Assembly (NCBI GenBank): GCA_045863395.1 | Contig: BTVJ01000001.1 | Span: forward strand, 192,001-256,000 | Direction of reading: 5' to 3' | Source of the DNA: Myxococcales bacterium | Lineage (GTDB): Bacteria > Myxococcota_A > UBA9042 > JABWCM01 > BTVJ01 | DNA: 64,000 nt | Shown here: positions 1,831 to 13,943 of the stretch, piece after piece | How the letters are laid out: the number at the start of each line of letters is the position of its first letter | How positions within the stretch are numbered: position 1 is the stretch's first letter | Notes under the pieces: model-generated | What the model saw: the letters and a program-made list of their open reading frames with translations, nothing else | The model's database searches: none | What the model was told of the DNA's origin: nothing | Translations under genes and position numbers: made by a program

Positions 1831-2658
1831 CTACTTCTTGACGGGCGGGAGGCAGAGGGCCGCCTCCTTCTTGCTGACGGCGAGCTGGTAGCAGGCACGG
1901 CAGTCCACCCCTTCATCCTGCCCGGGGAAGCAGGGCAGCGTCACCTCCTCGGTGGGCGGCAGGGTGCAGTCGAGCACGGGGAAGAACACGAGGCACCCAT
2001 TGCAGACGTTCAGCGGGTAGACGAACTCGTTGGAGTTGACGGTGTCCCCATCCTTCATGACCGCCTCGACGGTCACCCGCACCAGGATCTGGGTCGTGGC
2101 ATAGCGCTCCGACAGGATCTTCGACAGGCGCAGCGTCTCGCCGACCCTCGGTGGAACCACCTCGAGGACCGCTACGGTGGTCGACCCTGGCTCGATGCTC
2201 CCCGACGTGAACACGAACTGGCCCTGGGGCACCTCGACTCCCTGGTTCTCTGCGAGATCCGCCTGGATGTCCTCCGGGATGTCGTAGTAGACGGTGGCCC
2301 CCGTGATCTGGACCGTGTTGTTCTCCAGACGCAGGGTCGAAGGTCCCTGGCCCGAGATCTCCGCGCTCGTCGGCATGCCGTTCTCCACGGAGGGGAACAG
2401 CAGGTAGCGGTTCGTGATGCCGATGTCCATCCACCCGATGGGGCGGGTGATCTGACCGCCGGCGCGCGCCACGCACGACGAGGCCCGATCCACCGCCTGG
2501 TTGAACTGGACGAAGAGCGCCTGCGGGCTCCGGTCGGTGCAGCCCGCGACCCCCACGAGCGCAACCGCGAGGGCGGCGGCCCGCGCCCGGAGTGTCCCTG
2601 CGCTGCCCGCCCTGCTCGATGTGTCCCTGCTCTGCCCGTTCACCATGTTCCCTCTCAC
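1831..2658 (-). CDS. Hypothetical lipoprotein with a Cys-rich C-terminus (start uncertain)
   Basis: Lipobox-like AVALVGVAGC, typical high-GC3 codons, C-terminal VCNGCL...PCFPGQDEGVDCRACY. Confidence 0.75.
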   Translation of the reverse strand: MRGNMVNGQSRDTSSRAGSAGTLRARAAALAVALVGVAGCTDRSPQALFVQFNQAVDRASSCVARAGGQITRPIGWMDIGITNRYLLFPSVENGMPTSAEISGQGPSTLRLENNTVQITGATVYYDIPEDIQADLAENQGVEVPQGQFVFTSGSIEPGSTTVAVLEVVPPRVGETLRLSKILSERYATTQILVRVTVEAVMKDGDTVNSNEFVYPLNVCNGCLVFFPVLDCTLPPTEEVTLPCFPGQDEGVDCRACYQLAVSKKEAALCLPPVKK

Positions 2659-2679
2659 GTGCGGACCTGGTTCCTCGCA

Positions 2680-3765
2680 CTATCCCAAGAAGGCCTCACC
2701 AGCGAGCCGGAGCAGGCTGGCCATCGACAGGCTCACCGTCTCCACCTTCCCGATGGCACGCACGGCGACGAACCGGATGTCGCTGCCGCGCGCCTTCTTG
2801 TCGTGGCGCATCGCCGACGCCCAGGGGGCGTCCCTGTAGGGGGCCGGATCCGTCAGGAGCCGGCAGCCCTCCAACGCATCGGTGATCGCGTCCTCGACCT
2901 CCGGCCCGCACATCCCGAGCCGCCTCGACACCCTGGCTGCCACCACCATCCCGAGGCCGACGGCCTCGCCGTGGTTGAGCTCCGTGTACCCCGTCGCGGC
3001 CTCGATGCCGTGCCCGACGGTGTGGCCGAAGTTCAGGACCTCGCGGACGCCCGCCTCCGTCTCGTCTGCGGCCACGATGCCCGCCTTGACCCGACAGCAG
3101 AGGGTCACGATGGGCTCGATGACGTCCGGGCACCTGTCGAGGATCGCCGCCTCGTCCCGGCTGATGGACTCCAGCAGGGAGGGCTCCGCGATCACCCCGT
3201 ACTTTATCACCTCGGCCAGCCCGCAGCTAAGATCGCGGTCCGCCAGGCTACGCAGGGCGCCGAGGGGCACATGGACCAGCGACGGCTGGTGGAAGGTGCC
3301 TATCTGGTTCTTGCCAGCCTCGTGGTTGACGCCGGTCTTCCCACCGACGCTGCTGTCCACCATGGCGAGCAGCGACGTCGGCACCATCACCAGGGGCACG
3401 CCCCGCAGGTAGATGCTCGCTACGAAGCCGGCGAGATCTCCCACCACGCCACCGCCCAGGGCCACCACCGGGCGCCTGCGCCCGTGGCCCGTGTCGATGA
3501 GCCAGCCGATCAGCTCCTCCGCCTGCGCCATCGACTTCGAGCGCTCTCCAGGCGCGATCACCCGGAGGCGCGGCGACATGCCCAGCTCCCGCAGGCACCT
3601 GGTGAGGGGCTCCGCATAGAGGGGAGCCACCGTGCCGTCCGAGATCACCGCCACCGCACCCTCGGCGAAGCGGTCTGCGATGGCCTTTGCGGCCCTCCAC
3701 GGCCGGCCCCGCTCGATGCGGACTGGGTAGCTCCGCTCCCCAAGGGAGACCTGGACGATCTTCAT
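2680..3765 (-). CDS. aroB: 3-dehydroquinate synthase
   Basis: MKIVQVSLGERSYPVRI, GERSKS, ALGGGVVGDLAGF, PTSLLAMVDSSVGGKTG, LNFGHTVGHGIE, LNHGEAV. ATGA overlap with aroK. Confidence 0.97.
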   Translation of the reverse strand: MKIVQVSLGERSYPVRIERGRPWRAAKAIADRFAEGAVAVISDGTVAPLYAEPLTRCLRELGMSPRLRVIAPGERSKSMAQAEELIGWLIDTGHGRRRPVVALGGGVVGDLAGFVASIYLRGVPLVMVPTSLLAMVDSSVGGKTGVNHEAGKNQIGTFHQPSLVHVPLGALRSLADRDLSCGLAEVIKYGVIAEPSLLESISRDEAAILDRCPDVIEPIVTLCCRVKAGIVAADETEAGVREVLNFGHTVGHGIEAATGYTELNHGEAVGLGMVVAARVSRRLGMCGPEVEDAITDALEGCRLLTDPAPYRDAPWASAMRHDKKARGSDIRFVAVRAIGKVETVSLSMASLLRLAGEAFLG

Positions 3766-4295
3766 CGGGCCTCCTCCGCGCCACGGCCCATGCGACGGGC
3801 GACCGTCCGGGCCACCTGGTCCGGTGACCGGTCGCCCGCCTCGACACGCACGTGGGCGCGGGAATACCAGGTCCTCCGGCGCTCGCTCAGCTCCATGAGC
3901 ACGAACTCGGGATCTGCCGCAGCGTCGAGGAGCGGCCGACCAGCGGTGTCCCCGATGCGACGGCGGAGCTCCTGCGCAGGCGCGTCCAACCATACGACCA
4001 GCGTCCCTGGCCCCACGAGGCTCCAGGCGACCTCGCTGCACAGTGTGCCTCCACCAGTGGCGACGACGACGCGGACCTGCTTGGACACCTCGCGGAGCGC
4101 CGCCTGCTCACGGCGCCGAAAGCCCTCCTCGCCCTCGGCGGCGAAGATGGCCGGGATGTCGCAACCCGCGGCCTGCGCGACCAGAGCGTCCGTGTCGAGC
4201 GGCACCCACCCGAGCCGCGCAGCGAGGAGCCCTGCGACCGTCGTCTTGCCCACCCCCATCGGCCCGATGAGCAGCACCCGCTCTGCTTGCTCCAT
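3762..4295 (-). CDS. aroK: Shikimate kinase
   Basis: LIGPMGVGKTT P-loop, DTD, IFAAEGEEGFRRRE, VATGGG, RPLL. Confidence 0.96.
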   Translation of the reverse strand: MEQAERVLLIGPMGVGKTTVAGLLAARLGWVPLDTDALVAQAAGCDIPAIFAAEGEEGFRRREQAALREVSKQVRVVVATGGGTLCSEVAWSLVGPGTLVVWLDAPAQELRRRIGDTAGRPLLDAAADPEFVLMELSERRRTWYSRAHVRVEAGDRSPDQVARTVARRMGRGAEEAR

Positions 4296-4339
4296 GTCAG
4301 AGAGCCTCGCGGAGTCGGCTGACCGCCCCGCCCCGACGC

Positions 4340-7300
4340 TCACGGCGCCGCCACCGACGCCTGCCGGTTGATGATGCGCGGTGTCAGGAAGATCAGCAGC
4401 TCGCTCCGCTGGTCGGTCTCGCTGCGGGTCTTGAACAACCAACCCAGGATGGGGATGTCTCCAAGCAACGGCACCTTGCTGTAGTTGGTGCCTTGGTTAC
4501 GCGTATAGATTCCCCCGATGACCGTGGTGTCGCCGTCCCGGAGCAGGAGCTCCGTGTGAGCCTCCTTCTTCTGGATGGTCGGGTTGCCGTTGGCACCGGT
4601 CCGACCGAAGTCCGGCTCGTTCTTGGAGATGTCGATCTTCATCGCGATGGTGCCGTCCTGGGTGACGTGTGGCGTCACCTCCAATTTGAGCTCCGCGTTG
4701 AAGAACTGGGTGTTGACGCCCTGAGCCGACACGACGCTGATCGGGATGGACACGCCCTGACGGATGGTGGCCGCGGCGTTGTCGAGGGTCGAGATCTTCG
4801 GACTCGACACGATCTTGACGAAGCCCTCCTCCTCCGCCGCGGACAGCCGCAGGTTGATGTTCGCCGACTGGCTCAGATTGCCGAGGGTGAAGCCGATGGC
4901 GCCGCCTGAGCCTTGGCCTGCGGGAGCGGGCAGGTTGACCGCGAAGCCTGGCTGGTTCGTGTAGAGGCCGTCCGTCAGCGCCTGGCGGCCCGTGGCGCCG
5001 CCCGAGATGCCGACGATGCTCGGGAAGGAGAGGCCCGTCTCGTTGCCAAAGGCTGGCGACATGGCGAAGTTGCCGCCCCACTGGATGCCGACGTCCCGCG
5101 TGAAGCTCGACGACGCCTCGACGATGCGGGCCTCGATGAGCACCTGCGGCGTCTGGGTATCCAGCCGCCGGACCAGGTCCTCGGCAGCGATGATGTGGTC
5201 CTCGATGTCCTTGATGATCAGGGTGTTGGTGCGGTCATCGGTGCTGACGGAGCCCTTGGGACTCCGGATCTTGTCCACCTGCTCCGCAAGCGCGCTCGCC
5301 TTGCCGTAGTTGACGGGAATCAGGCGTACGTAGAGGGGCTTCAGGTCCACCTTCTTCTTGCGCTTCTCGATCTCGTCGTCGATCTCCTTCTTGATGGTGT
5401 CGATGGGCGCCACCCGGTAGATGCCCTCCTCCTTGACGTAATCGAGGCCCTTGGTGCGCAGGATCATGTCGAGCGCCAGGTCCCAGGGGATGTCCTCCAG
5501 GTGGAAGGTCACGCGGCCGCTGACATCCTCGCCGGCGATGATGTTCACCCTGCCCTCCTTGGCCAGGAAGGTGAGCACATGCTGGATGTCGGCGTCCTTG
5601 ATGGTCAGGTTGATGCGCTTGCCCGTGTAACGCTTCTTCTTCTTGCGCTTGTCGAAGGTCGGATTGATCGGCGTGTACGAGACGTCCGCAGCCGGAGCGG
5701 CCGCCGCCTGGCTGACCACGTTCGGGTAGTACCGCACCCCCGAGGTGGGCGGCGCGGGTGGCGGGACCGAGGCCGGAGAACGCGTCCCCGCGACCGGCGG
5801 GGGCGTCACCGCCGTTGAGCGATCGAACTCCCAGACCAGCGTGTCCTTCTCGCGCCGCAGGCGGTTCGAGACAGGGTTGCGCAGGTTGACCACGACGCGC
5901 ACGGCCCCCTGCTCCGACGGCTCCGTGGACTCGAAGGAGCTGACCATGGTGACCGACCCGTGGAAGTCCGAGACGTCAAGGCTCCGGCGCAGCTCCGAGG
6001 GCAGCGCCACATCACGGAGCAGGAGCACCGCCTGGCTACCGCTCTGGTCGATGACCTCGTACCGGGTGTCCGGCGTGACACCAATCTCTACCTGGGACCG
6101 CCCCGCGTCCTCGCGGAAGTCGATGCGGGCCACCGGGACCGTCGCCGCGCTCACCCTGGCGCCGGCCTGCGAGCGCGCTGCTGCGAGCATCCGGTCTGCC
6201 TCGGCTCGGGCCAGGCGGGCCGCCTCTGCATCCCTCTCGGCCTGGTCGCGCGCCGCCCGAGCTGCCGCCGTGTCGAGACCGGCCAGGCGCGCTGCCTCGT
6301 GGCGCGCCGCCCGCGCAGCCTCCGCCTCGCGGGCGGCCTGCTCACGCGCCATGCGCGCGGCCTCCGACTCCCGCCCGGCGACACGGGCAGCCTCCTCGCG
6401 CGCGGCGCGAGCCGCCTCCGCGTCCCGCTCCGCTTGCTCGCGGGCCACGCGCGCCGCCGCGGTGTCGAGCTCTGCCTGCCTGGCAGCGGTCACCTTCGCG
6501 GTGCGCGCCGCCTCCGCGTCGCGCTCCGCCTGCTCTCGCGCGTGCCGCGCCGCCTCCGTGTCCTGGCCGGCAAGCCGCGCCGCCTCCTCGCGCGCCTGAC
6601 GCGCCGCCTCCGCGTCCCGCTCCGCCTGCTCCCGCGCCTGCCGCGCCGCCTCCGTGTCCTTGCCGGCAAGCCGCGCCGCCTCCTCGCGCGCCAGCCGCGC
6701 CGCCTCCGCGTCCCGCTCCGCCTGCTCCCGCGCCTGCCGCGCCGCCTCCATCTCCGCCGCGGCCTTCCGCGACGCGGCCTCCTGCTCCGCGCGCGCCTCC
6801 TGTGCCTTCCGGAGCGCCTCCTCCTGTGCCGCGCGCATCTTTCCGATCTTCGTGTCGGACGCGCCAAGGGCCGCCTCGGACGCGTCGATGCGTGCGCGCA
6901 GACGCGAGATCTCCTCCTGGTAGGAGCGCTCGACCGACGCCCGATCTCCGCGCTGGGCCTCCGCCAACGACAGGCGCTGCTCCAGGTCGGCCAGCCGGGC
7001 GGCGACCGCCTTCTCCGCCGCGCGGGCCCGCTCCTCGCCCGCCTGCCGCTCGTCGCGGAGCTGCCGCTCGAGGTCCTTGACGGCGGGCCCGGCCGCCCCA
7101 GCACGGGCCTTCTCCTGCGCGAGCCTCGCCTCCAGCGCCGCGACCTTGGCGGCCAGCGCCCGTGAGTCGCTCAGCGCGTCCTTGCGCGCCTGGTCCTCGA
7201 TGCGAGCGCGCTCCGCATCGAGCTTCGCCAGCTTCGACGCCTGCTCACCGAGGGAACTCTCCAGCTCGACGATGCGCGCGTCCCGGGCCTTGACCGCCGC

Positions 7301-8896
7301 GTCGAGTTCTGCTCGGGCTCGCGCCGCGTCATCGCTCGCCTTGCGCGCCACGCCGAGCTCCTGCTCCAGGCGCCCGGCGGCCGCCTTCGCGTCGCTCGCC
7401 GCCTTGAGCGCCGCCGTCAGCCGTGCCTTGGCATCCTTGCCGGCCTTGCCGCTGACCTGACGCGTGGCCGCGAGCTCCGCCTGAAGCGCGTCGCTGGCGC
7501 GCTGCGCCTCCGCCGACGCGCTGCGCGCCGCCTCCAGCTCGCCTTCGAGGCGAGAGATGGCTTGCTCCTTCTGGACGATCTCCTTCTGGCCGCTCTGCTT
7601 CGTCTCCTGAAGCTCGCCTTGAAGCCGGTGCACCTCGGCCTCGGCCACCCGCGCGCGGTCCAGGGCGTCCGCAAGCCGCGCCACCTCCTGCTCCTTCTGC
7701 GCCAGCACTCCCTCCAGTCTGGCCACCTCTGCCTGCCGCGCGCCCTCGTCCGTTCGCTGGGTGCGCGCCGCCTCCGCTCGCGCCTTCTCCGCGGCGACGA
7801 GATCCTCGCGAACTCGAGCCAGCTCCCCCCGCCCCGCGTCCAGCTCCTGGCGCAGCGAGGCGACCTTGGCCTCCTCCTTTTGGCGCGCGGCCGTCACCTC
7901 GGAGAGCCTTCGCTGCTCCTTGTCCAGATCGTCGCGGAGCGCGCGCACGCGGGCCTCCTGGATGCCCACATCCGACTGGAGCTCCTCGTTCTCGCGCTTC
8001 TTGGCCTGCCAGGCGCCCTCGAGCTCAACCAGGGCCCGCTCCTTCGCCCGAAGCGAAGCGCTGAGGGTCGCCTCGCGCTCCAGCACGCGCGCCCTCTGCG
8101 CCTCGATCTCCTGCGCGAGCTGCGCGAGACGAGCCTCTTCTGCCTTCCGCGTGGCCTCCTGCTCGGGGAGCGCCTCGCTCAGGGAGCGCTGAACCCGCTC
8201 CTGCTCGGCGACCGTGCGCGCCAGGGAGTCCCGCTCGGCCCGGAGCGCGTCCACCGACGCCTGCTCGGACGCCCGGGCGCCCTCTGCGGACGCGCGCGCG
8301 GCCTCCATCTGCTCACGCAGGGCCTCCTCGGCGCGCCGCTGCTCTGCCGCCTTCGTCCGGAGCTGCTCCTCCTTGAGGCGCTCCAGCTTCAGCTTCTGCA
8401 GGAGGTCTCGCTCCCGGTCCACCGCCGCACGCACCCGCTCGTGCTCGGCGCGCAAGGCGCCTGTGTCGGGTCCAGTGCCAGCGGCGCGGCCCGCCCCATC
8501 GACGACCACACGGATGCTGGACCCGTCGGCATCCACCCGGTAGGTCGCGTCCTTGGTGAGGCCGATGATCACGCGCCCGATGGGCGTGCCGTCGTTGCGG
8601 AACTGCAGGGTCCCGATCTGGCCCACGACACCATTGTCCACGTCGATGGTGGAGTCCGCCCCGGACACGTCGCCGTTGGCGACGTCCACGAACAGGCGCA
8701 CCGGGTCTGCGAGCTTGAAGACGTTGAAGGTCGGGTGGGCCGAACCCCGGACGACGATCACCGTGCTGTCCGCGGTCTCCTCGACCACGATCCCCCGGAT
8801 CGCGTTGACCTCCGCGCGCGGCGCCTGTGCGCGGGCCGGCGGGGCCGCGGTCGTCACGACTGCGACCATGACCGAAGCCACGAGGCAGAATCTCAT
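4340..8896 (-). CDS. pilQ: Type IV pilus secretin PilQ (1518 aa) with a very large coiled-coil insertion between its AMIN domains
   Basis: Signal peptide; AMIN domain (FKLADPVRLFVDV); ~770 aa of E/A/R/K/Q coiled coil; second AMIN (LRRSLDVSDFHGSV); YTGKRINLTIKDADI (N0); DDRTNTLII; LDTQTPQVLIEARIVE; KVPLLGDIPILGWLFK...ELLIFLTPRI. Followed by aroK-aroB. Confidence 0.93.
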   Translation of the reverse strand: MRFCLVASVMVAVVTTAAPPARAQAPRAEVNAIRGIVVEETADSTVIVVRGSAHPTFNVFKLADPVRLFVDVANGDVSGADSTIDVDNGVVGQIGTLQFRNDGTPIGRVIIGLTKDATYRVDADGSSIRVVVDGAGRAAGTGPDTGALRAEHERVRAAVDRERDLLQKLKLERLKEEQLRTKAAEQRRAEEALREQMEAARASAEGARASEQASVDALRAERDSLARTVAEQERVQRSLSEALPEQEATRKAEEARLAQLAQEIEAQRARVLEREATLSASLRAKERALVELEGAWQAKKRENEELQSDVGIQEARVRALRDDLDKEQRRLSEVTAARQKEEAKVASLRQELDAGRGELARVREDLVAAEKARAEAARTQRTDEGARQAEVARLEGVLAQKEQEVARLADALDRARVAEAEVHRLQGELQETKQSGQKEIVQKEQAISRLEGELEAARSASAEAQRASDALQAELAATRQVSGKAGKDAKARLTAALKAASDAKAAAGRLEQELGVARKASDDAARARAELDAAVKARDARIVELESSLGEQASKLAKLDAERARIEDQARKDALSDSRALAAKVAALEARLAQEKARAGAAGPAVKDLERQLRDERQAGEERARAAEKAVAARLADLEQRLSLAEAQRGDRASVERSYQEEISRLRARIDASEAALGASDTKIGKMRAAQEEALRKAQEARAEQEAASRKAAAEMEAARQAREQAERDAEAARLAREEAARLAGKDTEAARQAREQAERDAEAARQAREEAARLAGQDTEAARHAREQAERDAEAARTAKVTAARQAELDTAAARVAREQAERDAEAARAAREEAARVAGRESEAARMAREQAAREAEAARAARHEAARLAGLDTAAARAARDQAERDAEAARLARAEADRMLAAARSQAGARVSAATVPVARIDFREDAGRSQVEIGVTPDTRYEVIDQSGSQAVLLLRDVALPSELRRSLDVSDFHGSVTMVSSFESTEPSEQGAVRVVVNLRNPVSNRLRREKDTLVWEFDRSTAVTPPPVAGTRSPASVPPPAPPTSGVRYYPNVVSQAAAAPAADVSYTPINPTFDKRKKKKRYTGKRINLTIKDADIQHVLTFLAKEGRVNIIAGEDVSGRVTFHLEDIPWDLALDMILRTKGLDYVKEEGIYRVAPIDTIKKEIDDEIEKRKKKVDLKPLYVRLIPVNYGKASALAEQVDKIRSPKGSVSTDDRTNTLIIKDIEDHIIAAEDLVRRLDTQTPQVLIEARIVEASSSFTRDVGIQWGGNFAMSPAFGNETGLSFPSIVGISGGATGRQALTDGLYTNQPGFAVNLPAPAGQGSGGAIGFTLGNLSQSANINLRLSAAEEEGFVKIVSSPKISTLDNAAATIRQGVSIPISVVSAQGVNTQFFNAELKLEVTPHVTQDGTIAMKIDISKNEPDFGRTGANGNPTIQKKEAHTELLLRDGDTTVIGGIYTRNQGTNYSKVPLLGDIPILGWLFKTRSETDQRSELLIFLTPRIINRQASVAAP
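6200..6748 (-). repeat. About 5.5 copies of a 96-bp (32-aa) coding tandem repeat in pilQ
   Basis: The unit EAARQAREQAERDA-EAARLAREEAARLAGKDT recurs with variation. Confidence 0.85.
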
Positions 8897-8975
8897 TCGG
8901 GATCCTCCAGAGCGTGCCGGACGGACCAGGGGGCACGGCACGCCTCGCCCGGTCCGCAACAACCCGCTGATTTCA

Positions 8976-8992
8976 CGCACGAAACGAGCCAA
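8976..8992 (-). promoter_or_regulatory. Possible sigma-54 promoter for pilQ
   Basis: Minus strand reads TTGGCTCGTTTCGTGCG (GG-N10-GC), about 80 nt upstream of the pilQ ATG. Confidence 0.35.
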
Positions 8993-9200
8993 GGCGTCCT
9001 CATGATGCTCCGAGCGCCGGCCGATCCTAGCCACGAGCCGCCGGTTGAGCAAGAAAAACCGGGCGTTCGAGCCATCCACGCAGCGGCCCTCCGCGACGCC
9101 GTCCCCTGGGGACGGCTCACGCGCGGCCAGAACCCAACGGGATCGAGGGCTGGTTGCATGACGCAAACCGTTCTAGCACGAGCGCCGCCCGATGGAAACG

Positions 9201-11024
<1,824 letters not shown>

Positions 11025-11028
11025 AGGA

Positions 11029-13803
11029 TCAGGGCTTGCTCACGGCGGCGTACTGGATGGTGATGCCCTTCACGGTGGGCTTGAGGCTCTCCGAGGCGGT
11101 CAGCGTCAGCTCCAACTGGAGAAACCGGTTGCCCTTGGCCGCCGGCCCGAGGAGCGCGCCTGCGTCGGTGGGGAACACGCCTGGCGGGAACGGCCCGGCT
11201 TTGGCGCTCCAGGGAGCCCCGGCCAGGTCTCCGGCGGTCGCCGCAGCGCGCAGCCGCAGGGAGATGCTGGTGCCGGGCGGGGTGGTCGCATCGACGGACA
11301 CGGACTTCCACGCCGTGACGTACCAGTCCTGCAGGTAGGTGTCGAGCTCGGGCGCCTCGTAGGTGGCGACGTAGGTGCCGTCGGGCACGATGGCCTTGAA
11401 GAAGGTGGAGCCCGTCATGTCGCTGTAGGTGTATGGCCCTGCCCCGACGGGGTGCTCCAGCACGATGGACATGTTGTTCGGGTCGATCTTGGTCGCCGAC
11501 GCCGCGCTCTGGTTGACCGCCCAGACGTAGCCGTCCGGATCGACGGCGATGCCGACGGGGAAGCGCCCGCCTCCAAGGTTGGCGCTGCCGACCATCTTGA
11601 GGGTCTTGGAGTCGATCTTGGCGACCCGGCTCGCCTCGTCGTTGGCGACGAACACGAGGCCCTTGCCGTTGGACACGATCCCGCGGGGACGGTTGTCCGT
11701 CGCCACGCTGGACCACTGGCCGCCGTTTGGATCGAACACATACGCCACGTTGCCGCAGCAGCAGTTGCCGATCCAGATGCGGTCCAGCTCGTCGATGGCG
11801 ATGCCGTAGGGCTCGAAGCACCCGCCGGGGCTGTAGGGCTGGACGGCCTTGGTGTCCGGGTGCACACGGACCAGCTTGCTACCGCCCCGCCCGCTCACCC
11901 AGATGATGCCCTTGGAGTCGATGGCGAGGCCGTAGGGGTTCACGCCGATGCTGATGGTCTGCAGGAGGGCGCCGGTCTCCGCGTGGAGCTGCGCCAGCTT
12001 GGACTCGTTCCAGTAGCCGACCCACGCGGTGCCGTCGTAGGCGATTCCCAGCGCCCGCGCCAGGGAGCCCACGCCCGGGCTGACGTCGAAGAGCACGCAC
12101 TCGTCCTGCCCCTTTGGCAGCATCTCGCTCGCCTGGATCACGCCGTCGCCGTTGGCGTCGAAGGACGTCTCGACGACGCCGTTGCCGTTCTTGTCCGGGC
12201 ACTTCTCCACGATGTTGCGGATCTTGTGGACGTTGCCGTTGCCCCGGCAGGCGACCCAGGCGTCGCCGGACTTGTCGACGGCGGTGCGGGACGGGTCCGG
12301 GCAGGTCTTGTAGCGGCCGAGCTCCTTGCCCGTGATGGTGTCGAGCTTGCTGACCGTGCTCTCGGCGGAGTTGGCGATCCAGATGAAGTGAAGGTTGTAC
12401 GAGCTCTCGGACAGCGTGAGCCAGCCCTCGGGGGTCAGGACGATGCCGTCGGACGCCGCGTCGAGGGTGAAGGGGGCCTCGCCGCCAGGGCCCGTCGTGT
12501 CCAGGTGGCAGAGCAGGTTGCAGTCGCCGCACTCGCTCAGGACCCCCTCGTCCACCTGGCCGTCGCAGTCGTTGTCCTTGCCGTCGCACGACTCGGGGGC
12601 CTCGACGACCTCTCCCTGGCAGGACGACCAGTAGCCCTCGGTGCACTTGCGCGTCCCCGCCTTGCACAGGCCGATGCCGATGAGCGCCTGGTTGCCCGAG
12701 TAGCAGGTCTGGGTCTGGCCGGGGTTCGAGCAAGGGCAGCCGGCTACGATGCTCACTGCGCAGTTCGGACACTTGGCCTGGAAGTGGGGGTTGTTGTCGT
12801 CGCAGTCCGCGCCGGCGGGGCACCCGGCGCCCGTGCCATCGCCGTCGTCATCGACGCAGCCCGGGGGCTTCGTGCAGTCGGGCAGGCCCTCGTCCGTCGC
12901 GCCGTCGCAGTCGTCGTCCTTGCCGTTGCAGGCCTCGGCGGTCGGGACCTTCTCTCCGAGGCACTGGCTCCAGAAGCCGCCGGCGCAGGTGCGGGTGCCG
13001 GCCGTGCAGGTGCCCTTGCCGACCAGGTCCGTGTCCGCCGAGAAGCAGGTCTGGGTCTGCCCTTCGTTGGAACAGGGGCAGCCGCCGTGGATGGCCGCGC
13101 CGCAGTCGGGGCACTGGGTCGTGAAGAACGGGTTGGTGTCGTCGCAGTCCGGGCCCGCCGCGCAGCCGCCGCCGTGCCCGTCGCCGTCGAGATCGGTGCA
13201 CTCGGGCGGGACGCAGCCCGGGAGGCCGTCGTCCGGCGCCCCATCGCAGTCGTTGTCGATGCCGTCGCAGACTTCCTTGGCTGGGGCCACCTCGCCCGCG
13301 CAGGGGCCCCAGACGCCGTTCTTGCACGTGCGCAGGCCCGTGCGGCAGGGTCCGACGTCCACTTGCTCGGCGGCGCCGGAGAAGCAGGGCATCTGAAGGC
13401 CGGAGTCCTCGCACACGCAGCCCTCGGAGGGGCCGTCGTCGCAGCCGTTGCACTCCGTGGCGCGCAGCGGGTCGGTGTCGTCGCAGTCGGGGCCCTTCTC
13501 GCAGCCTGCTCCGAAGCCATCGCCATCCTGATCCACGCAGCCGCAGTCGTCGCAGGCGATGTCGGGGCCGGAGTCTGGGGAAGCGGCGGGCCCGGTGTCC
13601 GCACGGGGCGCCGCCCCTGCATCGGGCTCGCCCTGCCCGGGAGAGCCCTGGCCGCCGCCGAAGCCGCCGCTGCCACCGAAGCCTCCGGCGCCAGGATCCT
13701 CGACGGCGCCGGGCTCACCGGGGCCCGCAGGGGAGCCCCCGCCTTCGGGAGACGCGCCAGAGCAGGCGACGAGCAAGGAGAGCAACGCGACGTGCCAGCG
13801 CAT
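11029..13803 (-). CDS. Lipoprotein with three Cys/Asp-rich (MopE-like, putative metal-binding) modules and a C-terminal beta-propeller
   Basis: Lipobox LLVAC; repeats of DxDGDGxG...DCDDxxP and E.CDGxDNDCDG..DEG; propeller blades (PYGLAIDSKGIIWV, PYGIAIDELDRIWI, PVGIAVDPDGYVWA); PYTYSDMTG. Confidence 0.85.
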   Translation of the reverse strand: MRWHVALLSLLVACSGASPEGGGSPAGPGEPGAVEDPGAGGFGGSGGFGGGQGSPGQGEPDAGAAPRADTGPAASPDSGPDIACDDCGCVDQDGDGFGAGCEKGPDCDDTDPLRATECNGCDDGPSEGCVCEDSGLQMPCFSGAAEQVDVGPCRTGLRTCKNGVWGPCAGEVAPAKEVCDGIDNDCDGAPDDGLPGCVPPECTDLDGDGHGGGCAAGPDCDDTNPFFTTQCPDCGAAIHGGCPCSNEGQTQTCFSADTDLVGKGTCTAGTRTCAGGFWSQCLGEKVPTAEACNGKDDDCDGATDEGLPDCTKPPGCVDDDGDGTGAGCPAGADCDDNNPHFQAKCPNCAVSIVAGCPCSNPGQTQTCYSGNQALIGIGLCKAGTRKCTEGYWSSCQGEVVEAPESCDGKDNDCDGQVDEGVLSECGDCNLLCHLDTTGPGGEAPFTLDAASDGIVLTPEGWLTLSESSYNLHFIWIANSAESTVSKLDTITGKELGRYKTCPDPSRTAVDKSGDAWVACRGNGNVHKIRNIVEKCPDKNGNGVVETSFDANGDGVIQASEMLPKGQDECVLFDVSPGVGSLARALGIAYDGTAWVGYWNESKLAQLHAETGALLQTISIGVNPYGLAIDSKGIIWVSGRGGSKLVRVHPDTKAVQPYSPGGCFEPYGIAIDELDRIWIGNCCCGNVAYVFDPNGGQWSSVATDNRPRGIVSNGKGLVFVANDEASRVAKIDSKTLKMVGSANLGGGRFPVGIAVDPDGYVWAVNQSAASATKIDPNNMSIVLEHPVGAGPYTYSDMTGSTFFKAIVPDGTYVATYEAPELDTYLQDWYVTAWKSVSVDATTPPGTSISLRLRAAATAGDLAGAPWSAKAGPFPPGVFPTDAGALLGPAAKGNRFLQLELTLTASESLKPTVKGITIQYAAVSKP

Positions 13804-13943
13804 GGCACACCTCCGTGGGGTTGGAGCCCGCCAATCATAGATCCATTCCAGGACTGCCGCCACCCGCGAGTTCGGCGTCGGGTGGTAGGAGCACCGTTCT
13901 GGCCACCCTGACGACCGGCTGGTAGCCTGGGCTCGTGGGAAGG

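Follow-up and report, generated by a model that had tools for sequence, protein, structure and literature searches.

Secretins are well studied, and their periplasmic halves are usually drawn as compact stacks of small domains. The PilQ proteins of Pseudomonas aeruginosa and Neisseria (714-761 aa) carry tandem AMIN domains and no rod; for the P. aeruginosa protein, the accessible text of PMC5285504 describes AMIN fragments that bind peptidoglycan and that polar placement requires, with the suggestion that they counter retraction force. The available portion of PMC10653833 gives Myxococcus xanthus PilQ (901 aa; 3jc8/3jc9) three AMINs on flexible linkers, which recruit PilQ to the septal and polar wall, one AMIN being sufficient for assembly and polar placement. 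In Vibrio cholerae, as far as the accessible part of PMC12632996 goes, the single AMIN is seen in situ as a ring beside the pore. The nearest printed precedent for a rod beside an AMIN is architecture viii of de Souza 2008 (PMC2572700), in which an AMIN is followed by a TolA-like, charged and coiled-coil-like helical region in deltaproteobacteria, the same broad group as here; in the available portion of that text, however, the fusion stands apart from PilQ (architecture iv), and no secretin, second AMIN or length is given. A PilQ of AMIN-rod-AMIN design was not found described in the literature searched, which comprised main texts with few subscription journals and without supplements, where a domain figure could exist. 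The word 'coiled' is absent from the accessible text of PMC10653833 and of two myxobacterial pilus-gene surveys (PMC6060248 and PMC13190605). New here is thus a PilQ-family protein with a long helical rod between its AMINs, the PilQ family itself being known.

The window, a stretch of 64,000 nucleotides from a Myxococcales bacterium, encodes this protein on the reverse strand, together with the following features.

4340..8896, minus strand: pilQ, type IVa pilus secretin, 1518 aa, with ATG at 8896, stop at 4340 and no internal stop
8904..8908, minus strand: GGAGG, ribosome-binding-site-like by sequence, 7 nt before the pilQ ATG
8822..8896, minus strand: Sec signal-peptide-like N-terminus, aa 1 to ~25 of PilQ, judged by eye from the translation
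8492..8815, minus strand: AMIN1, aa 28-135, distal domain of peptidoglycan-binding type, orthologous to M. xanthus AMIN1 (PF11741; 3jc8 residues 30-135)
6773..8491, minus strand: helical insert part A, aa 136-708, heptad-type coiled-coil region (periodicity 3.5; AlphaFold2 helices)
6197..6772, minus strand: helical insert part B, aa 709-900, six 32-aa Ala/Glu/Arg repeats, nine helical turns per repeat
6600..6695, minus strand: 96-bp repeat unit missing in the five-repeat allele (skip at 6599-6696 in runs X2 and X7)
5819..6145, minus strand: AMIN2, aa 918-1026, proximal domain, matching M. xanthus AMIN3 and the Neisseria B2 domain
5627..5818, minus strand: Pro-rich AMIN2-N0 linker, 64 aa, of ordinary length
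4343..5626, minus strand: STN/N0, N3 and secretin domains, aa 1091-1518 (Pfam STN, Secretin_N and Secretin; PDB; TIGR02515)
2680..4298, minus strand: aroK and aroB, directly downstream of pilQ, named from their translations

The product of 4340..8896 is a genuine type IVa pilus secretin PilQ in which two AMINs are parted by a helical rod. It scores 429.9 bits against TIGR02515 (PilQ; cut-off 284.35), and the GspD, SctC and MshL models all fall below their cut-offs (TIGR02517, GspD, 213.5 vs 351.35). Two PF11741 (AMIN) matches are present, with an AMIN following the signal peptide, the latter judged by eye. The best PDB match of the core is M. xanthus PilQ (3jc8, E 2e-140). AMIN1 matches the first AMIN of that protein (E 1.9e-16) and AMIN2 the third (3jc8 339-441, E 2e-5), and the rod therefore stands where M. 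xanthus PilQ has its second AMIN with the linkers on either side. As in P. aeruginosa and Neisseria PilQ (B1/B2; 6ve2, 4av2, 4aqz; core E 1e-64 to 1e-80), two AMINs precede N0, and AMIN2 also resembles Neisseria B2 (4aqz, E 0.003). The tandem-AMIN layout with short flexible linkers, canonical for these proteins, is nonetheless broken by the 782-aa helical insert.

This is the single PilQ-like secretin of the 8.8-Mb, 97% complete genome; the other tblastn match is a separate GspD on contig C26 (498.1 bits, TIGR02517). The partner genes are those of M. xanthus, namely pilMNOP and tsaP. The pilMNOP genes lie at 138-142 kb (G000:C1), ~55 kb from pilQ and not adjoining it; they adjoin pilQ in a genome of the same order (G001) and in most relatives. 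Of the rest of the pilus machine, the genome encodes tsaP and several T2SSE-family ATPases. Homologues of aroK and aroB stand downstream of pilQ in many relatives' loci, where they are usual neighbours. A PilB/GspE-like ATPase upstream adjoins pilQ in no relative's locus and was therefore set aside from the finding. A replacement of TsaP by the rod was also considered and dropped, a TsaP orthologue being present (E 2.5e-44 to 3jc8 TsaP). A promoter scan of 8850-9300 gave none matching the consensus. Two studies supplied metatranscriptome libraries whose contigs extend over most of pilQ, the insert included; contigs alone cannot show transcription.

The gap between AMIN1 and AMIN2 measures 782 aa, or 782 x 0.1485 nm = 116 nm as a straight helix. 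An earlier note on this DNA had described a ~770-aa E/A/R/K/Q helical insertion in a 1518-aa PilQ, with a contour above 100 nm at ~0.15 nm per residue, and both statements hold: residues 146-912 (767 aa) are 69% E/A/R/K/Q and contain two prolines (P244 and P604). Hydrophobic periodicity near 3.5 is found in most scanning windows across about aa 190-680. It is strongest at aa 191-474, where power reaches 1.3-1.7 in five windows starting at aa 191-391 (shuffled maxima 0.61-0.74, sd 0.14-0.22), is weaker at aa 441-724, and is no higher than in shuffles at aa 141-224 and aa 441-524. A tandem repeat of 96 bp x 6.1 at 6219-6801 encodes the six 32-aa Ala/Glu/Arg repeats of aa 709-900, which are without Leu/Ile/Val heptad signal and nonetheless keep helical phase. 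The insert thus has the length, near absence of proline and heptad or hendecad periodicity of a coiled-coil rod.

AlphaFold2, run with a 25-row alignment, returns two well-folded AMINs and divides the insert, at short breaks, into seven helices of 34-139 residues, with pLDDT of about 50-80 in the insert blocks, a pTM of 0.33 and packing that is not confident. Because of these breaks the insert is modelled as hinged and not as one unbroken coil, and it is predicted to be helical, not disordered. Of the continuous coil proposed earlier, the helical character is borne out by periodicity and AlphaFold2; its unbroken course is not, given the seven helices. Disorder, named beforehand as a refuting outcome, did not appear, the model giving helices. 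Foldseek against the PDB matched the AMIN domains alone (3jc8, AmiC 4bin, 4aqz) and returned no match for the rod. A single ESM Atlas match (0.81), to a cluster of 274-aa Myxococcota AMIN proteins, is below a useful level.

The modelled breaks yield helices of 95-139 residues that could pair antiparallel, as would be expected if the rod folded back into hairpins or a sleeve around the N-domains, with AMIN1 near the pore, and acted in stiffening, in gating or as a protein platform. However, the packing is not confident at a pTM of 0.33, and a fixed sleeve should limit length more than is seen; a folded-back rod is quite unlikely.

An assembly chimera, another refuting outcome named beforehand, is contradicted by independent contigs. 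Among the 24 listed sequencing runs, 18 contain at least half of the sampled words, and four were aligned to the gene. A contig of 16,339 bases from run X2, of a study separate from the possible source, covers 2600-9748 except for one in-frame 96-base skip (6599-6696) and crosses the whole pilQ gene with few differences. Run X7, from a third study, has the same skip at 6599-6696; two RNA-library runs keep the 96-base unit and show other base differences. These data suggest that pilQ has five- and six-repeat alleles, the shorter form (P0002) being 1486 aa with five repeats, with the proviso that an assembler may have collapsed a repeat, 54 letters fitting either side. Five relatives' assemblies break the pilQ frame within the insert, which marks the insert repeats as hard to assemble and is the one point for an artefact or for an insert cut away after export. 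Against it, the 16.3-kb contig spans the gene, and dozens of independent genomes, as well as proteins from cultured species, show the same architecture. An artefact or processing appears highly improbable. A natural split form of PilQ, with AMIN1 in a separate frame in the five relatives, was likewise rejected: N gaps occur in two of them, and in G130 and G140, which are sister genomes, the frame shifts lie at different sites.

Of 41 close genomes, 40 contain a match to the secretin core, 38 of these matches being strong and at PilQ level with the genome itself counted; so do 170 of 201 genomes drawn from the phylum. PilQ was taken from 39 relatives in the class plus the window and from 56 genomes outside the class; the outside set was hand-picked, long ORFs first and then one or two per family, and therefore gives no frequency estimate. 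Within the class the helical insert lies in the secretin ORF of 37/40, the other three having AMIN1 and a helical ORF upstream in a broken frame. Outside it, carriers occur in 9/31 other families of the phylum. A quick tree of 95 cores, from which G023 was left out as too short, comprises 57 PilQs with the insert, 34 without and four unscored, three of these four with AMIN1 and a helical ORF upstream in a broken frame. On this tree the insert state changes 3 times vs 27.6 in shuffles; the tree is unrooted, and gain and loss are not distinguished.

In the survey of pilQ lengths that had been proposed beforehand, lengths of 234-2026 aa were obtained for the 50 complete inserts, equal to some 35-300 nm of straight helix, with medians of 934 in the class and 417 outside. 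All 33 complete class inserts have at least 333 aa, and those of one family span 333-2026 aa, up to a six-fold range. Non-carriers (n=34) space AMIN1 and AMIN2 by 13-147 aa. One member of family f37 has apparently lost its insert. An insert above 200 aa is present in 64 of 67 database proteins; in two others it is 89 and 127 aa long, and the remaining protein has three AMINs. Named matches are mostly Myxococcota, Myxococcales or Deltaproteobacteria MAGs. A PilQ query from family f22 returned proteins of Lujinxingia litoralis, L. vulgaris and L. sediminis, whose inserts measure 398-412 aa, or about 60 nm. Judged from genes, the insert is a lineage-wide architecture, common to many myxobacteria-like bacteria including cultured predators, and not the one-gene oddity that it had first appeared to be.

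Within this wide range of lengths, the indels point to constraint on one property. Proline makes up 0.1% of the inner insert over 50 complete inserts vs 12.5% of the AMIN2-N0 linker. Tandem repeats occur in 14/50 inserts, with lineage-specific units. Counted once per genus, 14/16 repeat periods fit 3.5-3.67 residues per turn vs 30/56 possible lengths (p 0.005), the fitting periods being 7, 14, 18, 21, 25, 28, 32, 36 and 50. Indels of at most 40 aa keep phase in 22/28 cases in the insert vs 3/21 in the Pro-rich linker (Fisher p 1e-5), and indels of one or two residues number 0/28 vs 10/21. The 28 are what is left of 34 insert indels with good flanks after five above 40 aa and one duplicate were removed; the 21 control indels come from 13 pairs, and the pair sets differ between insert and control. 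Lengths 3 and 4 were counted as phase-keeping post hoc, and without them the counts are 15/28 vs 1/21. One pair supplied 8 of the 28, and in periodic sequence alignment programs may tend to place gaps in register. The indels indicate selection for a continuous helix, in a test that does not separate coiled coil from single helix. Insert length thus drifts while helical phase is kept.

This drift also fits a linker that grew by tandem duplication and was selected only for a soluble, helical and protease-resistant state, its length and stiffness doing no work. The wide length range with its lineage-specific units, insert identity below that of the flanking domains in 28/28 close pairs, the apparent loss in the f37 member and the absence of the insert from most other families all suit such tolerated growth. 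It accounts poorly for the retention of at least 333 aa in 33/33 complete class inserts, at a cost of hundreds to 2000 residues per protomer, and for phase-keeping indels joined to stronger AMIN1 conservation in carriers. Tolerated growth is rather unlikely.

The R-hhh-D/E motif marks the wall-binding face of the AMIN of AmiC. Among carriers it is found in AMIN1 in 49/49 and in AMIN2 in 30/49. AMIN1 is more conserved than AMIN2 in 534/606 carrier pairs vs 21/65 pairs of non-carriers with two AMINs, pairs being non-independent. Since both the conservation contrast and the motif counts favour AMIN1, this domain at the rod tip is under tighter constraint than AMIN2.

Braun's lipoprotein joins a membrane anchor through a coiled coil to a wall-binding end. 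Struts of this kind, SlpA of Deinococcus among them, bridge the space between outer membrane and wall and are regarded as setting its width. SlpA resembles the present design in that a membrane barrel or anchor is joined by a coiled coil to a wall-binding end (PMC9388160, accessible part). Unlike these struts, PilQ here keeps a second AMIN beside the pore, and the length of its rod varies nine-fold. A much wider periplasm, in which a large gap separates outer membrane and wall and the rod bridges it in the manner of a long Lpp or SlpA strut, should lengthen the parts anchored in the inner membrane. Measured from one aligned anchor to the next, the PilN stalk has 58 residues in 69/69 genomes and the PilO stalk 51-61 residues (n=72), in both cases with inserts of 13-2026 aa (alignments viewed for 14 and 15 rows, respectively). 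The AMIN2-N0 linker is of ordinary length, 38-110 residues with the insert and 41-131 without, and PilQ has no extra N-domains. The genome's GspD fits the standard model over its full length, a genome scan read by eye shows no comparable lengthening in any other envelope connector, and upright rods would range from 35 to 300 nm among relatives.

On the other side, carriers have a PilP linker with about 24 additional residues (median 98 vs 74.5), the length of which correlates with insert length among them (rho 0.68, kin not independent); their periplasmic portions of PilN and PilO also exceed those of non-carriers by about 35-45 residues in total. The scaling with other trans-envelope parts that a strut would show is absent, the PilP linker alone being modestly longer, an increase that suggests some difference in the dimensions of the envelope or of the machine. 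A periplasm more than 100 nm wide is unlikely; these gene lengths would allow a modest widening, far short of 100 nm. A rod spanning a wide envelope is improbable, and of the unusual envelope once proposed the very wide form is mostly unsupported in view of the PilN and PilO stalks, the AMIN2-N0 linker and the six-fold length range, while a modest widening suggested by the PilP linker is kept. The spacing of pore and inner membrane is probably near normal. A general trend to longer envelope proteins was considered and is unsupported: PilQ carries the second-longest coiled-coil-like run in the genome scan, and the other long runs look cytoplasmic from their N-termini, read by eye.

The reading preferred here, at a probability of about 45%, is that the insert is a hinged lateral tether that anchors the secretin, or targets it, to distant peptidoglycan. 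The short AMIN1-AMIN2 linker of an ordinary secretin would have become a long, hinged and near proline-free rod, AMIN2 staying beside the barrel. Since an upright stance would be impossible, each protomer would send its rod sideways through the periplasm, over 116 nm if straight and less if bent or folded back, with a hinge every 14-21 nm. AMIN1 at the tip would grip peptidoglycan far from the pore. Acting as guy-lines, the rods could let PilQ search for septal or polar wall over a greater distance and distribute the force of pilus retraction across a larger area of wall; stiffness and phase would matter and exact length little. By analogy with the P. aeruginosa, M. xanthus and V. cholerae AMIN papers we infer that in these organisms AMIN2 would sit by the barrel and AMIN1, carried on the outer tip of the rod, would bind distant wall. 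A lateral scaffold or tether was already among the options of the earlier note, and it fits the data best. In its favour are counted the spread of the architecture, the kept helical phase, the conservation of AMIN1 and the unchanged PilN and PilO stalks, along with TsaP, PBPs and an ordinary GspD in the genome. Against the tether stand the longer PilP linker of carriers, the drift from 333 to 2026 aa in one family, which also fits a weakly constrained linker, and the sufficiency of one AMIN in M. xanthus.

The heptad pattern needs a partner helix, and helical phase is conserved, as is the helix just after AMIN1, the first ~45 insert residues of which share a common consensus (alignment A1). 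These features suit a lattice in which the rods of neighbouring rings pair with one another, or with a partner protein, and set the spacing of machines at the pole. A ruler, however, should have a fixed length, at odds with the six-fold range in one family and the one-repeat difference between alleles, and no other long secreted coiled-coil partner was seen in the genome scan with N-termini judged by eye. Spacing by such pairing is unlikely. A complex prediction with two copies of aa 26-385 returned a score of 0.01 (mark 0.42) and counts neither for nor against pairing.

Taken beyond the single protein, the lateral tether leads to a tentative picture, which we would sooner doubt than believe, in which a large branch of the Myxococcota surrounds its pores with a periplasmic corona of hinged 35-300 nm rods that anchor them to distant wall or join them in arrays, rod length tuning pilus load or number. 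A dozen or more such rods per pore would have to fit a periplasm that the PilN and PilO stalks suggest is near normal. If real, the corona would be a structural element unseen in any pilus or secretion machine in the literature searched, with rods that reach a good part of the way across the cell pole. The rod bears on how the pilus machine may be held against retraction force, on pole finding, and on pilus number and spacing. The natural length series (234-2026 aa), the five- and six-repeat allele pair and cultured S-motile carriers make the design testable; pili, S-motility or gliding are reported for bradymonabacteria in the accessible parts of PMC11509652 and PMC7460792, which give no envelope width. 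The genome also holds six PBP transpeptidase matches. GC3 of the insert is 0.89-0.90, and that of the PilQ domains 0.92-0.94.

The type IVa pilus genes pilMNOP and the secretin gene pilQ are arranged differently in the genome of the window than in most relatives. pilMNOP and pilQ lie about 55 kb apart on opposite strands, unlike the contiguous pilMNOPQ of a genome of the same order (G001) and of most relatives. Family f8 and parts of families f3, f7 and f11 are likewise without pilMNOP upstream of pilQ. Further genes near pilQ in the window, and those of the separate pilMNOP locus (L090), are as follows.

Window 1831-2658, minus strand: lipoprotein-like ORF, 275 aa, no Pfam match
Window 9201-11024, minus strand: PilB/GspE-like ATPase of the MshEN type, immediately upstream of pilQ
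Window 11029-13863, minus strand: Cys-rich protein, 944 aa, that combines an NHL/Vgb-like propeller with motifs of the MopE type
Contig C1 138412-141661 (L090 10412-13661), strand opposite to pilQ: pilMNOP
L090 11467-12957: PilN and PilO

The ATPase, one of five full-length paralogues in the genome, scores below the cut-offs of both the PilB and the GspE models, and no counterpart adjoins pilQ in the relatives' loci. A profile built from the 275-aa ORF matches ORFs 3' of pilQ-aroK-aroB in many relatives, some of these matches possibly reflecting profile drift; because of this position, the ORF may belong to the pilus locus. The Cys-rich product is probably a surface lipoprotein.

In genomes whose PilQ carries the long helical insert, the periplasmic parts of PilN and PilO are in total about 35-45 aa longer. 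The extra residues of PilN and PilO encoded at L090 appear to be placed within the globular domains, not the stalks. Two genomes of one genus (G036 and G166, 94-95% complete) have the order pilM-pilP-pilQ, with pilN and pilO not found in between and no match to PF04350 genome-wide. Their PilQ inserts are short (333-369 aa), and their secretin core sits on a very long branch (0.94) in the tree of PilQ cores.

The PilQ of G143 is a 556-aa frame (L145 6629-8296) with no AMIN domain detected, and pilMNOP was not found upstream of it in that locus. A record titled as a Klebsiella pneumoniae MAG (L008 2184-9287) encodes a 2368-aa PilQ of the insert-bearing type that clusters with Myxococcota records; the MAG is probably mislabelled or a mixed bin.

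The longest coiled-coil-like run in the genome of the window is found elsewhere.

Contig C3 118531-121995, minus strand: 844-aa coiled-coil-like run, preceded by a response-regulator-like N-terminus

The product resembles AglZ/FrzS.
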